From contig CAVXAH010000001.1 in NCBI GenBank assembly GCA_963759775.1, forward strand, positions 400,682 to 464,681: a stretch of DNA of 64,000 nt, in the 5' to 3' direction. The translations under genes and the position numbers were made by a program. The DNA comes from an uncultured bacterium. GTDB lineage: Bacteria > Patescibacteriota > Minisyncoccia > Phycocordibacterales > Phycocordibacteraceae. Below, in pieces: positions 8,485 to 26,077 of this stretch (position 1 is its first letter; every line of letters starts with the position of its first letter). The notes under the pieces were generated by a model. The model ran no database searches. It worked only from the letters and a program-made list of their open reading frames with translations, and had not been told where the DNA came from.

Positions 8485-8513
8485 TTGCATTTCCCTGCTC
8501 ATTTATATATAGT
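8485..8513 (+). promoter_or_regulatory. sigma70-like promoter TTGCAT-17-TATAGT upstream of rpsL
   Basis: TTGCAT 8485-8490, 17-nt spacer, TATAGT 8508-8513. Leaves a ~105-nt structured leader before the rpsL ATG. Confidence 0.55.
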
Positions 8514-8521
8514 CTCACTCG

Positions 8522-8541
8522 ACCCCGCACGGGGTTCTTTT
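8522..8541 (+). terminator. short GC hairpin plus T-run (terminator of the upstream cluster or leader attenuator)
   Basis: ACCCCG-CA-CGGGGT followed by TCTTTT. Confidence 0.4.
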
Positions 8542-8623
8542 ACTACCAAGCGAGCCGAGTGACAAAGCACGTCTTCGTGCATTTGTCCGAGGCAAGCGCA
8601 GGGAGTAAGCCTACTTAATTCAA

Positions 8624-9574: not shown

Positions 9575-9925
9575 TTACCGGCAGATGAGCTCGTTCTTCA
9601 ATCCTCCGAATGCTTGAAGAGTAATCCGGAGTGGTTCCCGTGTCATGCCCAGCATCGATTTCCGCTTGAGCCTGCTGCTTGGCGACTTCAAGCGACGGCA
9701 AAGCCTTGCTCGAAGATCGACGTCGTTCCAGTACGAAAGCGAGGTCTGTTGAACGCGATTTTCACCGCCAGGTCCGCTTTGTTGTAAATCCTGAAAGGTG
9801 CTGCGCTCAACTAAAACCGTCTTGGGCGCAGCCACTTCTGCAGTCTGCCCATGGTTTGTCTCCAGTTGTGTGGATACCACCAAACTTCCAGAGAAGAAGT
9901 TACCACACCGTGCCATTCTTTGCAT
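9575..9925 (-). CDS. possible small antisense-oriented gene in the rpsG-fusA spacer, probably frameshift-damaged
   Basis: 116-aa ORF with TAGAAT upstream on the minus strand, ending at the 9535-9568 hairpin. More natural-looking peptide segments ([21 protein letters not shown]..., [24 protein letters not shown]...) lie in the other two minus frames. Confidence 0.3.
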
Positions 9926-9976
9926 TTTTCCGATTCTTCGCTATTCTACGGACAACGCTTCGGCGCTTTTTATTTT

Positions 9977-9988
9977 TATAACACTATC

Positions 9989-9991
<3 letters not shown>
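9977..9991 (+). promoter_or_regulatory. -10-like box + 6 nt + ATG (leaderless layout) at fusA
   Basis: TATAAC 9977-9982, ACTATC, ATG 9989. An additional TTGCAT-16-TATTCT lies at 9920-9947. Confidence 0.45.
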
Positions 9992-12141
<2,150 letters not shown>

Positions 12142-12170
12142 ATCCGGCGGACGAAACCTGCCCCGTAGCC

Positions 12171-12196
12171 AAACGCCGCCTTCCGAGGCGGCGTTT
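12171..12196 (+). terminator. hairpin after fusA
   Basis: AAACGCCGCC-TTCCGA-GGCGGCGTTT. Confidence 0.55.
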
Positions 12197-12254
12197 GTGG
12201 TACTGAGGTCATCGCAAAACGTAAATAAAAGTACACAAAACGCTTGTGCACAGC

Positions 12255-12284
12255 GGCCGCCCGAAAGGGCGGCCTGTGTTTTTA
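12255..12284 (+). terminator. rho-independent terminator (second, tandem) after fusA
   Basis: GGCCGCCC-GAAA-GGGCGGCC followed by TGTGTTTTTA. Confidence 0.7.
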
Positions 12285-12295
12285 TATGCCTCTTG

Positions 12296-12310
12296 TATAC
12301 TGTCCTCATG
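12296..12310 (+). promoter_or_regulatory. -10 box + 6 nt + ATG (leaderless layout)
   Basis: TATACT 12296-12301, GTCCTC, ATG 12308. Confidence 0.55.
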
Positions 12311-12697
12311 AAACATTACTTTGAAGGCAGAATAGCTCGTTTGAATTATTTTGTTGCAGGTATCGCGCTCTCAATTTCCTTGTCCATCGTCTCAAGCATA
12401 CTTAACAAAGTAGTTGGTGGGGTGGGAGCCAACCTGGTAGTTGGTCTCATCACGCTCGCCGCATTTATGCTAAGTCTTTCGCTTATGTTACGTCGCTTCC
12501 ATGACATGGGATGGAGCGGTTGGCATTCACTCTGGATGATTGTTCCGCTCGTGAACATCGTATTTTGTCTTATGCTCCTCTTCAAGCGCGGAACAGCGGG
12601 CGACAATCAGTACGGCAAAGATCCGGAGAAAGAAGTTCGTCTTTGGGAAAGCCTTTTCCCGAAAGCCCCGAGAATTTCTTCTCCACAACCCCTCTAG
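12308..12697 (+). CDS. DUF805-family inner membrane protein
   Basis: Start taken at the internal ATG. RLNYF...TM helices...LRRFHDMGWSGWHSLWMIVPLVNIVFCLMLLFKRGTAGDNQYGKDP matches the DUF805 signature (RRxHDxGxSGWW...G..G.N.YG). Confidence 0.8.
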   Translation: MKHYFEGRIARLNYFVAGIALSISLSIVSSILNKVVGGVGANLVVGLITLAAFMLSLSLMLRRFHDMGWSGWHSLWMIVPLVNIVFCLMLLFKRGTAGDNQYGKDPEKEVRLWESLFPKAPRISSPQPL

Positions 12698-12846
12698 CAC
12701 TTGCGCTTTCCGTAGGGCTCCGGTACATTTTCCCTAACGCATCTTGGCGTCGCTCTTTGGCTGTCTGCTTGGTTTAGTAGCGGGCCTGGAGTTTTTCCGA
12801 CTCGCGTCGGATTTATTTAACCGTTACCGATAATTACTAAATCGTA

Positions 12847-14051
12847 TGGCAGAATTCGATCGTTCAAAGCCGCACATGAACGTAGGTACCATCGGTCACG
12901 TTGACCACGGTAAGACCACGCTCACCGCCGGCATCCTCAACGTCCTTGACATGAACAAGGCAGCAGGCTACAGCGCCCGCGTTGAGGCATGTCGACAACA
13001 TCGACAACGCTCCTGAAGAAAAGGCTCGTGGTATTACGATCGCCCTCCACCACTCGAGTACGAGACACCGAACCGTCACTACGCGCACATCGACGCGCCA
13101 GGTCACGCTGACTACATCAAGAACATGATCACCGGTGCCGCCCAGATGGACGGCGCAATCCTCGTGGTTGCCGCAACTGACGGCGCTGATGCCTCAGACT
13201 CGCGAGCACATCCTCCTTGCAAAGCAGGTTGGTGTGCCTAAGAATCATCGTCTTCCTCAACAAGGTAGACATGGTTGATGACAAGGACATGATTGACCTC
13301 GTTGAAGAGGAAATCCGCGAACTTCTCACAAAGCAGGGCTTTGACGGCAGCAACACTCCAGTTATCCGTGGTTCAGGCCTCAAGGCTCTTGAAGCTAAGA
13401 CGCACAGATGACGAATGGGCACAGAAGGTTATGGAGCTCGTCGACACGCTGGACACGTACTTCCCAGATTCCAGAGCGCGAGACTCGACAAGCCATTCCT
13501 CATGCCAATCGAAGACATCTTCTCAATTGAAGGTCGCGGAACCGTGGTTACCGGTCGTATCGAACGCGGTATCGTCAAGGTTGGTGAGGAAGTCGAAATC
13601 GTTGGTATCAAGCCAACCGCAAAGACGACCGTTACTGGTATCGAAATGTTCAACAAGCAGCTTCAGCGAGGGTCAGGCTGGCGACAACGCAGGTATTCTT
13701 CTTCGCGGTACGAAGAAGGAAGACGTGCACCGCGGTCAGGTTCTCGCAAAGACTGGTTCTGTAACTCCGCACACTGACTTCGAGGCAGAGGTGTACATCC
13801 TCACGAAGGACGAAGGCGGTCGTCACACTCCATTCTTCACTGGCTACAAGCCACAGTTCTACGTCCGCACAACGGACGTGACTGGCGAAGTAACTCTTCC
13901 AGAAGGAAAGGAAATGGTTATGCCAGGCGACACCGTTACCTTCAAGGTGAAGCTCGTTGCGCCAGTTGCTCTTGAGGACAAGACTCGCTTCGCTATTCGC
14001 GAAGGAGGCAAGACGGTAGGTGCAGGCGTTGTGACGAAGATCGTCGCCTAA
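12847..14051 (+). pseudogene. tuf: elongation factor Tu, disrupted as assembled by about 8 single-base indels between ~12985 and ~13670
   Basis: [28 protein letters not shown] at the start. Frame hopping yields [85 protein letters not shown]..., [28 protein letters not shown]. The last ~125 aa are intact to 14051. Confidence 0.9.
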
Positions 14052-14072
14052 ACCCTAGAATTAATCACTCGT

Positions 14073-14459
14073 ATGGCAACCGCAGCAAAAACAGCAAAAC
14101 CGAAGCGCGCTCCGAAGGCAAGCGTCGGCAGTCGCAGCGGCAGCCGCAGCAGGAGCACAAGCTCCGCATCCGCGTGCGTGCCTACGAGCACAAGATTCTC
14201 GATCTCTCGGTGAAGCAGATTATGGACACGGCAACTCGCTTCGATGCGAAGGTCGTCGGACCCGTTCCGCTTCCAACCGAGATCAAGCGCTGGACCGTGA
14301 ACCGCTCAACGTTCGTCCACAAAGACGCGCGCGAGCAGTTCGAGATGCGCATTCATAAGCGCCTCATCGATATCCTGAACCCAGCGCCCAAAGGTGATCG
14401 AGGCTCTCACGAACCTCAATCTTCCTTCCGGCGTCACGATTGACGTGAAGATGGTCTAA
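14073..14459 (+). pseudogene. rpsJ: 30S ribosomal protein S10 with N-terminal basic extension; at least 2 indels
   Basis: Core [72 protein letters not shown] in ORF 14174... An extra G near 14394 hides the natural end [21 protein letters not shown]. The ATG at 14073 is in a different frame. Confidence 0.85.
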
Positions 14460-14478
14460 CAAGGTCCGACCTTGTACA

Positions 14479-14508
14479 CAAAACCGCCCGGAGGGGCGGT
14501 TTTGTCTT
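14479..14508 (+). terminator. rho-independent terminator after rpsJ
   Basis: AAAACCGCCC-GGAG-GGGCGGTTTT followed by GTCTT. Confidence 0.75.
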
Positions 14509-14545
14509 AACCCTTATTTCATACGCTCTTTTTTATAATACAAAC

Positions 14546-14650
14546 CTGTGTCCGCGAGCTTCCTTGCTCTAATGCTTGCTAGGAGAAATCAAGAGCAAGC
14601 ACGGATACGGCGCGAAAATGCCGCCCTTAAACAAGGCGGCATTTTTGTAT
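14546..14650 (+). ncRNA. candidate ~100-nt small RNA with its own promoter and terminator between rpsJ and rplC
   Basis: TATAAT at 14534-14539. Nested helices GTGTCCG/CGGATAC and CTTGCTCT/AGAGCAAG around a 21-nt loop. Terminator AAAATGCCGCC-N9-GGCGGCATTTT at 14615-14645 plus a T-run. Confidence 0.4.
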
Positions 14651-14669
14651 CCACCCTTCTTTTAATTTC

Positions 14670-14698
14670 TTGCATCTTTTTGGGGGCTCCTGTACAGT
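14670..14698 (+). promoter_or_regulatory. promoter TTGCAT-17-TACAGT for the rplC unit
   Basis: TTGCAT 14670-14675, 17-nt spacer, TACAGT 14693-14698. Confidence 0.55.
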
Positions 14699-14704
14699 GC
14701 CCGT

Positions 14705-14777
14705 ACCGCTAAGTCCCTTCGGGGACCAATGGCTCGGAGGGTTCAAAACCCGACGCGCTCTTGTAGCGCATTTTTTA
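14705..14777 (+). promoter_or_regulatory. structured rplC leader with UUCG hairpin and attenuator-like hairpin plus T-run
   Basis: GTCCC-TTCG-GGGAC (14713-14726). GCGCT-CTTGT-AGCGC followed by ATTTTTTA immediately before ATG 14778. Confidence 0.4.
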
Positions 14778-15395
14778 ATGAAATTTATTCTTGCAAAGAA
14801 ACAGGGGATGACCCGCATTTACACGGAGGACGGCCGCGCCTTGGCTGGCACTGTGCTTAAAGCAGACTCCATCGTTGTCACCCAGGTGAAAACTGCGGAC
14901 GGCAAGGACAAGTATGCCGCTGTGCAAGTAGGATTTGGTACACGCAAAGCATCTCGCGTTGGTAAGGCAGTCCTTGGTCACACGAAAGGCAAGGGCTACG
15001 CAGATATTCGCGAGTTCCGCATGGAAGCCGGCGACCTCGCCGTTGGTTCGGAAATAAAAGTAGATACATTTGCTCCAGGCGACACGGTGCAGGTCTCGGG
15101 TCTTTCAAAAGGTCACGGGTTTGCGGGCGTGGTGAAGCGCCACGGCTTCCACGGCGGTCCTCGCACCCACGGTCAGAAGCACTCTGAACGCGAGCCGGGT
15201 TCTATCGGTGGTTCGGGTGGTCGCGCCGGAGGTCGCGTTGCAAAAGGCATTCGCATGGCAGGACGCATGGGACAAGACCGCGTCACCGTAACAAACCTCA
15301 AGATTCTTGCGGTTGATCCGGCTACAAACGAAATCATCGTTTCGGGCGCAGTTCCCGGCGCGCGCGGCACCTTGCTTGAGGTCGTCTCCAAGTAA
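14778..15395 (+). CDS. rplC: 50S ribosomal protein L3
   Basis: Start at internal ATG: MKFILAKKQGMTRIYTEDG... (typical L3 N-terminus KKxGMT); ...GFAGVVKRHGFHGGPRTHGQ. Confidence 0.95.
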   Translation: MKFILAKKQGMTRIYTEDGRALAGTVLKADSIVVTQVKTADGKDKYAAVQVGFGTRKASRVGKAVLGHTKGKGYADIREFRMEAGDLAVGSEIKVDTFAPGDTVQVSGLSKGHGFAGVVKRHGFHGGPRTHGQKHSEREPGSIGGSGGRAGGRVAKGIRMAGRMGQDRVTVTNLKILAVDPATNEIIVSGAVPGARGTLLEVVSK

Positions 15396-15409
15396 TTTTC
15401 AATACTCGT

Positions 15410-16201
15410 ATGGCAAACACAATTAAAAAAAGAATTAAGAGACATGCAGGACTTTCGGGAACTGCAAAGAGAAAGGCTTCAAAGGCGCGCGCTCCGAAAG
15501 CGGAGAAAGCTGCTTATGTTCCCGCAGTTGCTGGCCCAATGGAAGCACAGGTGTACGGAATGGATGGCAAGAAGGTTTCAACCATTGCACTTCCTGCAGA
15601 GCTTTTCGGCCTCAAGTGGCGCCCTGACTTCGTGCACCAGGTGACAACGGCACTCGCCGCAAACCTGCGCCAAAACCGTGCTCACACGAAGGACCGCGCA
15701 GAGGTAGCCGGTGGCGGAAGAAAGCCGTGGAAGCAGAAAGGCACCGGCCAGGCTCGTCACGGCTCTACGCGTTCTCCTATTTGGCGCCACGGAGGTGTTA
15801 CGTTTGGTCCGCGCTCCACGCGCGACTATTCCGAGAAGGTGAACCGCAAAATGCGTGTGGGTGCACTTCTTACCGTGCTTTCGCAGAAAGCAAAAGACGG
15901 CGAAATTATTTTCGTAGACAAGCTTGCTTTTGCTGCACCAAAGACGAAAGATGCGGTGAAGACGCTTGCGGCGCTTTCAAAGTCCTCGCACGCCAAGCTC
16001 CTTTCGGAGACTGGCGGTAACAGCGCCCTTATTGCTCTCACGTCGTACGATGTAAATGCAATCAAGAGCTTCCGCAACATGCAGGGAGTTTCGACCGAGG
16101 AAGTGCGCAACCTGAACCCGCTCAACGTCCTCTCGTACCGCTATCTCATCGTTGAGAAGCCGGAGGAGACGTTTAAGATTTTGACTTCACGCTCTAAATA
16201 A
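15410..16201 (+). CDS. rplD: 50S ribosomal protein L4 with ~45-aa basic N-terminal extension
   Basis: ...GGGRKPWKQKGTGQARHGSTRSPIWRHGGVTFGP, typical L4. Confidence 0.95.
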   Translation: MANTIKKRIKRHAGLSGTAKRKASKARAPKAEKAAYVPAVAGPMEAQVYGMDGKKVSTIALPAELFGLKWRPDFVHQVTTALAANLRQNRAHTKDRAEVAGGGRKPWKQKGTGQARHGSTRSPIWRHGGVTFGPRSTRDYSEKVNRKMRVGALLTVLSQKAKDGEIIFVDKLAFAAPKTKDAVKTLAALSKSSHAKLLSETGGNSALIALTSYDVNAIKSFRNMQGVSTEEVRNLNPLNVLSYRYLIVEKPEETFKILTSRSK

Positions 16202-16585: not shown

Positions 16586-17434
16586 ATGAAATCCTACCGA
16601 CCTTACACCAAGAGCCGCCGCTTCATGACGACGCTTCCCTACAAGGAGCTTCTTTCGGGCGACCGTCCGCACAAGGCGCTCCTAAGGGCCAAGAAGCGCC
16701 AAGGCGGGAGAAACGACTTTGGTCGCATCACGACCCGTCACCAGGGAGGAGGTCACAAGCGCCGCCTTCGCGATGTTGATTTCTCATACAACAAGAAAAA
16801 CATTCCTGCGAAAATAGAGACGATTGAGTATGATCCGTTCCGCTCAGCGTTTATCGCGCTCGCACTCTACGCAGACGGAGAGCGCCGTTACGTCATCGTT
16901 CCGAAAGGCACGAAAGTGGAAGATTCGTTTATCGTTTCCGAAGACGCACCGGTCACATCGGGGAACCGCATGCCGCTTGGGAAAATCCCCGTTGGTACGT
17001 TTGTGTACAACATTGAGCTCCAGCCTTCCGCAGGCGCAAGTCTCGTGCGCTCCGCAGGCAACTACGCAGAAGTGGTCGCTCATGACGCAGGCTTCGCTCA
17101 GGTGAAACTTCCCTCAACTGAAATCCGCAAGATTTCAGACCTTTGCTGGGCATCTATTGGTGCAGTGGGGAATGAGGAATACAACCTCGTTGTTATCGGC
17201 AAGGCAGGTCGTGCACGCTGGATGGGTATTCGCCCAACCGTTCGTGGTACGGTCATGAACCCGGTAGACCACCCACACGGCGGTGGTGAAGGTAAGCAGG
17301 GCCGCGGTTTGAAGCGCGCCAAGTCCCTCTGGGGCAAGCCAACCGGCAAGGGCCAAAAGACTCGTACGCCAAAGAAGTACTCAAACGTTTTCATCATCTC
17401 CCGCCGCAAGGTTGGAAAGAAGCGAAACGGATAA
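16586..17434 (+). CDS. rplB: 50S ribosomal protein L2
   Basis: ...RHQGGGHKRRLR...VRGTVMNPVDHPHGGGEGK, typical L2. Confidence 0.97.
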   Translation: MKSYRPYTKSRRFMTTLPYKELLSGDRPHKALLRAKKRQGGRNDFGRITTRHQGGGHKRRLRDVDFSYNKKNIPAKIETIEYDPFRSAFIALALYADGERRYVIVPKGTKVEDSFIVSEDAPVTSGNRMPLGKIPVGTFVYNIELQPSAGASLVRSAGNYAEVVAHDAGFAQVKLPSTEIRKISDLCWASIGAVGNEEYNLVVIGKAGRARWMGIRPTVRGTVMNPVDHPHGGGEGKQGRGLKRAKSLWGKPTGKGQKTRTPKKYSNVFIISRRKVGKKRNG

Positions 17435-25507: not shown

Positions 25508-26077
25508 GTGAACGAAAAACACACTATCTTTTTTCTCGGAAAGCCCGGTTGTGGGAAGGGCACCCAAGCAAAACTGCTTGCGGCACAAACAGGCTTTCCC
25601 ATTTTTGCCTCCGGAAAACTATTCCGTGATATTGCAAAAGAGGACACACCCGTTGGCCGGAAAGTAAAAGTAGAAAACGATGCAGGCATACTTCAACCGC
25701 ACTGGTTTGCCATGTATCTGTACCTTAAATCACTTTTTTCCATTTCAAGCGATGGAGGTGCGATTTTTGACGGCTTTAATCGAAAGATGCCGGAGGCGCA
25801 GCTCGTTATAGACTCCATGCGGTGGCTCAACCGGCCATTTTCTATTGTGCACATAAAAATCTCTGACGAGGAGGTACACCGGCGGTTGGATTCTCGCAAG
25901 GAAACATCGGGTCGTGCAGACGACCACGCGGTACATGAACGCCTAAAGGAGTACTACACGCATACCGAGCCAGTCATAGAGCTTTTTAAAAAAGAAGGCG
26001 TTTTGATTGAAATCAGCGGCGAAGAGACCCCGGAGCAGATAGCGCAAAATATCCTTTCAACGCTCCATCTCACATGA
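25508..26077 (+). CDS. adk: adenylate kinase
   Basis: P-loop FFLGKPGCGKGTQAKLLA. GTG start. Position between secY and map. Confidence 0.88.
   Translation: MNEKHTIFFLGKPGCGKGTQAKLLAAQTGFPIFASGKLFRDIAKEDTPVGRKVKVENDAGILQPHWFAMYLYLKSLFSISSDGGAIFDGFNRKMPEAQLVIDSMRWLNRPFSIVHIKISDEEVHRRLDSRKETSGRADDHAVHERLKEYYTHTEPVIELFKKEGVLIEISGEETPEQIAQNILSTLHLT

Follow-up and report, generated by a model that had tools for sequence, protein, structure and literature searches.

Genes for small RNAs that end in a Rho-independent terminator are the described elements most like the short unit that a first-pass annotation proposed, between rpsJ and rplC, as a candidate small RNA. Like such genes, the candidate is about 100 nt long and intergenic, and it combines a -10 box, a 5' hairpin and a terminator with an A-tract and a U-tract, with no credible open reading frame (ORF). 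It differs from them in having no TTGC-type -35 box, no homologue in relatives and no Rfam family, and it is known from sequence alone. The unit can also be compared with the intrinsic terminators that separate operons. Its own terminator (T2) has the canonical anatomy and lies 20 nt upstream of the rplC -35 box, as terminators do in several close relatives. However, the candidate adds a 65-nt hairpin and a -10-like box to this arrangement, and rpsJ is already terminated by a hairpin of its own (T1).

The genes rpsJ and rplC are universally linked, being neighbours in most bacteria. In E. coli, the S10 leader acts through uL4-mediated attenuation and translational repression (PMC10931766). The leader that we describe below for rplC resembles it in being a structured 5' leader with an intrinsic terminator ahead of the L3, L4, L23 and L2 cluster. 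However, the Kaiserbacteria leader precedes rplC rather than rpsJ, is about 75 nt long and has no match to the S10 leader in Rfam. A closer positional counterpart is the L4-Archaeoglobi leader candidate, which lies directly upstream of rplC-rplD-rplW-rplB (Eckert and Weinberg 2020, Table 1, PMC7247131). The two occupy the same position but L4-Archaeoglobi belongs to an archaeal lineage and, since the rplC leader had no Rfam match at E ≤ 10 in the search of 14400-14850, there is no evidence that they share a common descent. If a ribosomal protein does bind the rplC leader, the E. coli S10/uL4 attenuator would have a counterpart that evolved independently. We know of no described regulatory RNA in the lineage to which our sequence belongs. 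The rplC leader, together with the separation of rpsJ from rplC by a cargo slot, is of more interest than the candidate, which at best adds to the orphan small RNA candidates of uncultivated bacteria and offers no means of inferring a target.

The window, meaning the whole 64-kb stretch of DNA analysed here, belongs to a Candidatus Kaiserbacteria-like bacterium within Paceibacterota (candidate phyla radiation). Among genomes, its L3 protein is matched best by Kaiserbacteria MAGs, with identities of no more than 77%. In the window, rpsJ (14073-14460) is preceded by tuf (12846-14051), and rplC (14778-15395) is followed by rplD, rplW and rplB. The 317-nt gap between rpsJ and rplC (14461-14777) contains three terminator-like hairpins, T1, T2 and T3. 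T1 is the intrinsic terminator of rpsJ (14478-14509, + strand); it reads ACAAAACCGCCC-GGAG-GGGCGGTTTTGT, has perfect arms of 12 nt and folds with -21.8 kcal/mol (z = -5.9). Here rpsJ and rplC are separate transcription units.

It should also be noted that fusA, tuf and rpsJ (approximately 9575-14460) are each split into several ORFs, unlike rpsL, rpsG and the genes from rplC onward, which are single long ORFs. A DNA alignment with the intact genes of one relative (L019) places about ten out-of-frame indels in tuf and rpsJ. The clearest of these lie outside homopolymer runs (for example at 13186, 13402, 13463, 13482, 13667, 14151 and 14383). This pattern points to a local problem of consensus quality in highly conserved genes, and pseudogenes are less likely. 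An ORF for a 166-aa membrane protein lies between fusA and tuf (12197-12697), and tuf has a promoter-like site of its own (TTGCGC-N17-TACATT, 12701-12729). The ORF and the promoter-like site suggest that the str/tuf cluster has likewise been interrupted and re-promoted.

Anatomy and signals of the candidate unit

All of the elements from which the candidate had been assembled are present in the sequence where the first-pass annotation put them. A T-run (14530-33) precedes a perfect TATAAT (14534-14539, + strand). Downstream, an outer helix forms between GTGTCCG (14548-54) and CGGATAC (14602-08), with one G-U pair, and an inner helix between CTTGCTCT (14563-70) and AGAGCAAG (14592-99), around the 21-nt loop AATGCTTGCTAGGAGAAATCA. 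An intrinsic terminator, T2, closes the unit and a separate promoter for rplC follows 20 nt later, at 14670-14698. The description of a discrete unit set between two other transcription signals, and explained by no coding gene, also holds, with T1 before it and the rplC promoter after it.

The helices belong to a 65-nt hairpin (14546-14610, + strand), the outer stem of which comprises 9 bp (14546-54 with 14602-10). Within the hairpin, two inner helices exclude each other, one pairing 14563-70 with 14592-99 and the other 14573-80 with 14594-601. The minimum-energy fold takes the second of these (TGCTTGCT/AGCAAGCA), together with a small GAGC/GCTC hairpin. The inner helix of the first-pass annotation and that of the minimum-energy fold are alternatives because two copies of CTTGCT compete as partners for the 3' strand, AGAGCAAGCA.

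T2 (14612-14650, + strand) is made up of an A-tract, a GC-rich stem, a 9-nt loop and a T5 stretch (14642-46), and its 11-nt arms (14615-25 and 14635-45) are 100% complementary. A consensus terminator scan missed T2 because that scan was limited to loops of at most 8 nt. T2 provides the Rho-independent terminator that is required at the 3' end of a small RNA gene of this kind.

The unit is far more stable than its composition predicts. Positions 14540-14655 fold with -51.1 kcal/mol, compared to -27.9 ± 3.2 kcal/mol for dinucleotide shuffles (z = -7.3), and none of 200 shuffles equalled this value. Taken alone, the hairpin folds with -28.6 kcal/mol (z = -4.5) and T2 with -21.8 kcal/mol (z = -6.2). 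The hairpin is 8 kcal/mol more stable on the + strand than on the - strand, for which the value is -20.8 kcal/mol.

The evidence for a promoter is mixed. TATAAT occurs only 4 times in the 64 kb, both strands counted. The hexamer has no matching -35 box: at a 17-nt spacing the sequence reads CCCTTA, and there is no TG extension. A general promoter scan did not report the site at 14534-39. Eight sites on the + strand of the window fit TTG-N3 followed by a 16-18-nt spacer and TAnAnT, including those upstream of rpsL (8485), tuf (12701), rplC (14670) and an ORF starting at 25508. Most of the window's other promoter-like sites read TTGC at -35 (TTGC-N16-18-TAnAnT), although the search pattern itself required TTG at that position. 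Of the proposal that the unit has its own promoter, the perfect and rare -10 hexamer stands, but a -35 box of the TTGC type, the type seen at comparison sites that were chosen by their TTG, is not found. On its sequence, we regard the candidate's promoter as doubtful rather than absent, since a perfect -10 box can sometimes function alone.

A frame of 46 codons that starts with ATG at 14572 had been named as a coding alternative. It is the inner part of a 54-codon ORF that starts with GTG (14548-14712). This ORF reads through T2 as far as 14712, within the rplC promoter and leader region; its hydrophobic tail is encoded by the T-rich tail of the terminator and by the conserved rplC promoter. 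A search of 5.8 billion proteins found no relative of the 54-aa product (none had even three 5-residue words in common with it), and no relatives of the minus-strand reading either. The minus-strand reading had been considered as a possible match to a 60-aa ORF called on the contig of a relative with 94% identical L3. In addition, tblastx against the related loci detected no coding remnant. Small proteins and type I toxins are recognised by homologues and by an ORF that ends before the terminator, and neither was found here, so the 46-codon frame is hardly credible as a coding alternative.

The insert and the variable gap between rpsJ and rplC

We compared the window with 85 related loci from Kaiserbacteria and other Paceibacterota (L numbers), comprising 80 genome loci that were collected through L3 and 5 metagenome contigs (L081 to L085). 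The L3 proteins of the metagenome contigs are 85-90% identical to that of the window, with L082 at about 90%. No counterpart of positions 14509-14665 was found in the 85 loci by blastn, by tblastx or with a covariance model. These 157 nt (+ strand) are specific to the window and contain the whole candidate.

The borders of the insert are sharp. L082 287-319 aligns with window positions 14476-14508 and L082 319-553 with 14666-14899, with nothing between, so that the rpsJ terminator and the rplC promoter stand 157 bases further apart in the window. In L082, the homologue of T1 (287-319) directly adjoins the rplC promoter and runs straight into TTTTCTTGCAT; this is an empty site, and T1 marks the left border of the insert. 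In L081, L083 and L085 the alignment with the window begins only at 14666/14667. L084 matches the window only around the rplC start and in a short stretch beginning at 14666. Upstream of the position corresponding to 14666, L081, L083, L084 and L085 carry sequence unlike that of the window. Two still closer relatives, with L3 94% identical, are known from gene maps alone; they too differ in the content of the gap, which holds a gene for 154 aa in one and a 60-aa ORF call on the minus strand in the other.

The gap is a hypervariable cargo slot, a hot spot that is empty in some relatives and holds unrelated genes in others. Across the 66 loci that carry both genes, the distance from rpsJ to rplC ranges from 5 to 2331 nt. 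The longer gaps contain unrelated ORFs, with Pfam matches to NYN, bacterial sugar transferase, short-chain dehydrogenase (SDR), MOSC, PaaX-like and CPBP protease families. In L083, rplC is preceded by genes for DoxX and for the toxin YafQ, and the locus yielded no S10 gene. In L081, L083 and L085, rpsJ does not adjoin rplC. Several close relatives (L082, L083, L084, L003 and L019) have a terminator just upstream of the rplC -35 box, and T2 occupies the same position in the window. Several of the related contigs in the genome collection break 0-680 nt upstream of rplC.

At gathering thresholds, Rfam 15 identified only a tRNA-Ser in the whole window and no family at the candidate. At E ≤ 10 within 14400-14850, the best overlapping models were RcsR1 (19.1 bits, cut-off 60) and Phe_leader (17.9 bits, cut-off 55), and the RcsR1 match covers essentially the terminator only. 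These sub-threshold scores derive from the layout of a hairpin with a terminator and not from sequence. The check proposed for the candidate, a search of Rfam for ribosomal-protein leaders and known small RNAs, therefore produced no family at or above threshold. Neither a tRNA nor a tmRNA was found at the site. A covariance model of the hairpin (R1), searched against 558 kb, scored the window copy at 100.7 bits, and this was the only copy above noise. The next matches, both antisense, reached 22 bits (L015 2147-2202, - strand) and 18.5 bits (window 16762-16817, - strand). Both weak matches fall outside the rpsJ-rplC gap, that of the window inside rplB and that of L015, at a comparable offset, some 1.5 kb downstream of rplC. 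We take both to be chance similarity in a conserved coding region.

Other origins of the sequence were also considered. A repeat element of the REP or MITE-like type was rejected because neither the 64-kb window nor 494 kb of related loci contained another copy. A phage, plasmid or virus origin was rejected as well, since blastn found no match in phage and plasmid collections and one ~38-nt pattern of the candidate had 0 matches in IMG/VR. JGI metagenomes likewise yielded 0 matches for two ~38-nt patterns from two parts of the unit, whether exact or transition-tolerant. A tandem duplication of the rpsJ 3' end and T1, to which two short direct repeats with spacings of 138 and 143 nt had pointed, was rejected because the local alignment score of 14 compares with a mean of 15.5 for shuffled sequence. 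Finally, a small hairpin of the candidate and the UAAUGCU after it are reminiscent of P1 and the subsequent CAAUGGCU in the rplC leader, but a paralogue of that leader was rejected because the leader model (R2, described below) gives the candidate no more than 3 bits, even with filters off.

The reading that we prefer, to which we would give about an even chance, is that the candidate is a lineage-specific, non-coding mini-insert of ~157 nt (14509-14665) in the cargo slot. It would sit between T1 and the conserved rplC promoter and leader, with T2 taking the role that relatives assign to the terminator just upstream of the rplC promoter. T2 would then act as an insulator, halting upstream transcription before it reaches the rplC promoter and attenuator, so that the leader can begin with its proper 5' terminus. 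Neither the TATAAT nor the 65-nt hairpin shows any sign of selection, and the simplest reading would make them the relic of a small piece of cargo DNA, or something that arrived with one. If the TATAAT does fire, it would yield a hairpin-plus-terminator RNA of ~103 nt restricted to the window's lineage. Several features, among them an unusually stable fold (z = -7.3) and the hairpin's preference for the + strand, do not sit easily with such a mini-insert. With 6 nt separating the TATAAT from the first paired base, the predicted RNA would be structured throughout, from its 5' end to the terminator; such a tidy layout is typical of a real small RNA gene and unexpected of random leftover DNA. Since T1 is already a strong terminator, a second one is not obviously needed. 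Furthermore, a young, species-specific small RNA could be missing from relatives with L3 no more than 90% identical. A genuine species-specific small RNA gene is the main rival, and a less likely one: it would start ~6-7 nt past the TATAAT (~14546), end at T2 and measure ~103 nt, and its 21-nt purine-rich loop (UAGGAGAAAUCAAG) or its switchable inner helices would act on RNAs or proteins. The compact order of -10 box, hairpin and terminator speaks for this gene, as do the stability of the whole unit and of the hairpin (z = -4.5) with its better + strand, the rarity of TATAAT (4 in 64 kb on both strands), the failure of every test for coding, and a self-contained position apart from rpsJ (by T1) and from rplC (by its own promoter). 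However, the unit is absent from all 85 related loci, including those with L3 85-90% identical, and has no covariation support, no Rfam family, no -35 box like those of the other promoter-like sites in the window and no second copy or relative in any collection searched. Conservation in relatives was the test that the first-pass annotation had itself set for a small RNA, naming its absence as grounds for refutation, and on this test the reading fails; neither sequence nor structure is kept in the 85 related loci, as they would be for a conserved trans-acting small RNA. The discrete, non-coding character of the unit stands and the search for homologues and for a family came back empty; the small-RNA reading is not supported by the sequence-based tests run here. 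We consider it rather unlikely that the unit is a young functional small RNA gene that forms the smallest cargo in a recombination hot spot between two ribosomal-protein operons, beside the rplC attenuator. The candidate is real as sequence and ordinary as biology, an orphan hairpin-terminator unit that lacks comparative support as a small RNA.

The remaining explanations have less in their favour than the mini-insert. Extra upstream control of the rplC operon in cis, whereby transcripts from read-through or from the TATAAT are stopped or passed at T2 according to which inner helix forms, is improbable. The unit does lie directly upstream of an operon with a conserved attenuator, the strand AGAGCAAGCA does pair with either CTTGCT copy, and there is a weak likeness, in architecture only and far below threshold, to leader-type Rfam models (Phe_leader, 17.9 bits against a cut-off of 55). 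However, the alternative helices spare the T2 stem and so contain no antiterminator for it, rplC is served by a conserved promoter that lies downstream of T2, relatives regulate rplC without the insert, and the R2 score of at most 3 bits shows no paralogy with the rplC leader. The candidate also lacks the marks of a ribosomal-protein leader, being cut off by T2, placed upstream of the rplC promoter and absent where the leader is present. An artefact of assembly or sequencing in a poorly resolved stretch of the contig is very unlikely. This explanation arises because tuf and rpsJ, just upstream, carry the ~ten out-of-frame indels relative to L019, whereas the genes from rplC onward are single long ORFs; but single-base indel errors do not make a 157-nt segment with two well-formed hairpins and clean junctions at T1 and at the promoter, and the insert is not a duplicate of its flank (score 14 compared to the shuffled mean of 15.5). 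We give almost no credence to a small, possibly toxin-like protein with a charged N-terminus and a hydrophobic C-terminus, read from the 46-codon ATG ORF at 14572 (54 codons from the GTG at 14548). The ORF exists, its C-terminal 20 residues are hydrophobic and its start codon lies inside a hairpin, as in some type I toxin mRNAs. Against this, it runs across T2 to 14712 in the rplC promoter and leader, its hydrophobic tail is a translation of the terminator tail and of a promoter conserved for other reasons, and both the search of 5.8 billion proteins and tblastx against the related loci came back empty.

The promoter and leader of rplC

From 14666 onward, the sequence is common to the window and its relatives. 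The rplC promoter (14670-14698, + strand) consists of TTGCAT (14670-75), a 17-nt spacer and TACAGT (14693-98), and is kept as TTGCAT-N17-TA(G/C)AGT in close relatives. Transcription is predicted to start near 14705, giving a leader of ~75 nt (14705-14777, + strand) that ends just before the ATG at 14778. The leader runs from CGCUAAG through a hairpin P1 (GUCCC-UUCG-GGGAC, 14713-17 with 14722-26), the conserved CAAUGGC (14727-33) and a variable hairpin P2 (14739-43 with 14747-51) to the terminator T3 (GCGCU-CUUGU-AGCGC, 14755-59 with 14765-69) and its U6 tract (14771-76), which ends 1 nt before the ATG at 14778.

We built a covariance model (R2) from the five closest leader sequences and searched 558 kb on both strands. 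It returned 24 matches at E ≤ 0.06, all of them directly upstream of rplC and on the + strand. Besides the window, the leader is present in 23 related loci (for example L082 358-434, L085 281-357 and L038 2856-2934). In the R2 alignment, 93% of cells are paired and 10 of the 15 pairs have changes on both sides, a result reached by 0 of 500 shuffles; all five pairs of P2 covary. This alignment was fitted to the model and hence is biased towards structure, but slide controls collapse. Hairpin lengths vary among the leaders; for P1, 27 distinct sequences were aligned by the flanking conserved anchors only, independently of folding. One pair of P1 is UA in 18 sequences and AU in 9, with no breaks, and the apical pair takes five pair types across the 27 sequences. 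At the third pair, 17 sequences have a non-standard combination, mostly A.G. P1 scores 0.43 for covariation, compared to 0.10 for shuffles, and 0 of 500 shuffles reach this value.

An alternative pairing is possible between the conserved CAAUGGC (14727-33) and GCUCUUG (14757-63), a segment that overlaps T3 at its 5' arm. In about 10 leaders of the terminator type, the minimum-energy fold is this C(A/U)AUGGC/GCUNUUG pairing. Since GCUNUUG comprises the terminator 5' arm and loop, the pairing would be an antiterminator. One compensatory change only was seen for it, in L011 (CUAUGGC/GCUGUAG). Of what is expected of a terminator/antiterminator leader, positions 14705-14777 show a conserved structure with three covarying helices directly upstream of a ribosomal-protein operon, combined with an intrinsic terminator. 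Attenuation would work through a ligand: by holding P1 and CAAUGGC, it would leave the terminator free. By analogy with E. coli S10/uL4, one of the operon's own ribosomal proteins might serve as the ligand, most obviously uL4 or uL3, although this is inference only. Mimicry of E. coli 23S rRNA (positions 197-211 and 406-430) was considered and rejected, as in the Rfam LSU consensus structure the strands in question lie in separate local hairpins and are unpaired with each other.

The rplC leader had no Rfam match at E ≤ 10 in 14400-14850, and a full-text literature search on ribosomal-protein leaders of Parcubacteria gave no description of it. Eckert and Weinberg do not list it among their leader candidates, of which the only one linked to rplC is archaeal (PMC7247131). 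Its sequence and strong covariation suggest a ribosomal-protein leader of the terminator/antiterminator type, so far undescribed, in Kaiserbacteria and their relatives.

In more distant relatives (L058, L064, L067, L056 and L046), all that is kept is a hairpin followed by GGACCAAUAGA(C/A)AAC. The hairpin lies right at the start codon in four of these five, suggesting translational control, and ~75 nt upstream in L046. In the window, ACTCGTATGGCAA precedes both rpsJ and rplD (14065-14075 and 15400-15412), with no sequence like a Shine-Dalgarno motif, and UUUUUUAAUG precedes rplC. Translation initiation in this genome may be independent of Shine-Dalgarno sequences, in which case the AGGAG in the candidate's loop is unlikely to be a ribosome-binding site. 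A further leader may exist upstream of rpsL. In the region 8485-8623, a promoter-like TTGCAT-N17-TATAGT lies 110 nt upstream of that gene and is followed by a GC-rich hairpin (GACCCCGCACGGGGTT) and a T-run, which may represent another ribosomal-protein leader.
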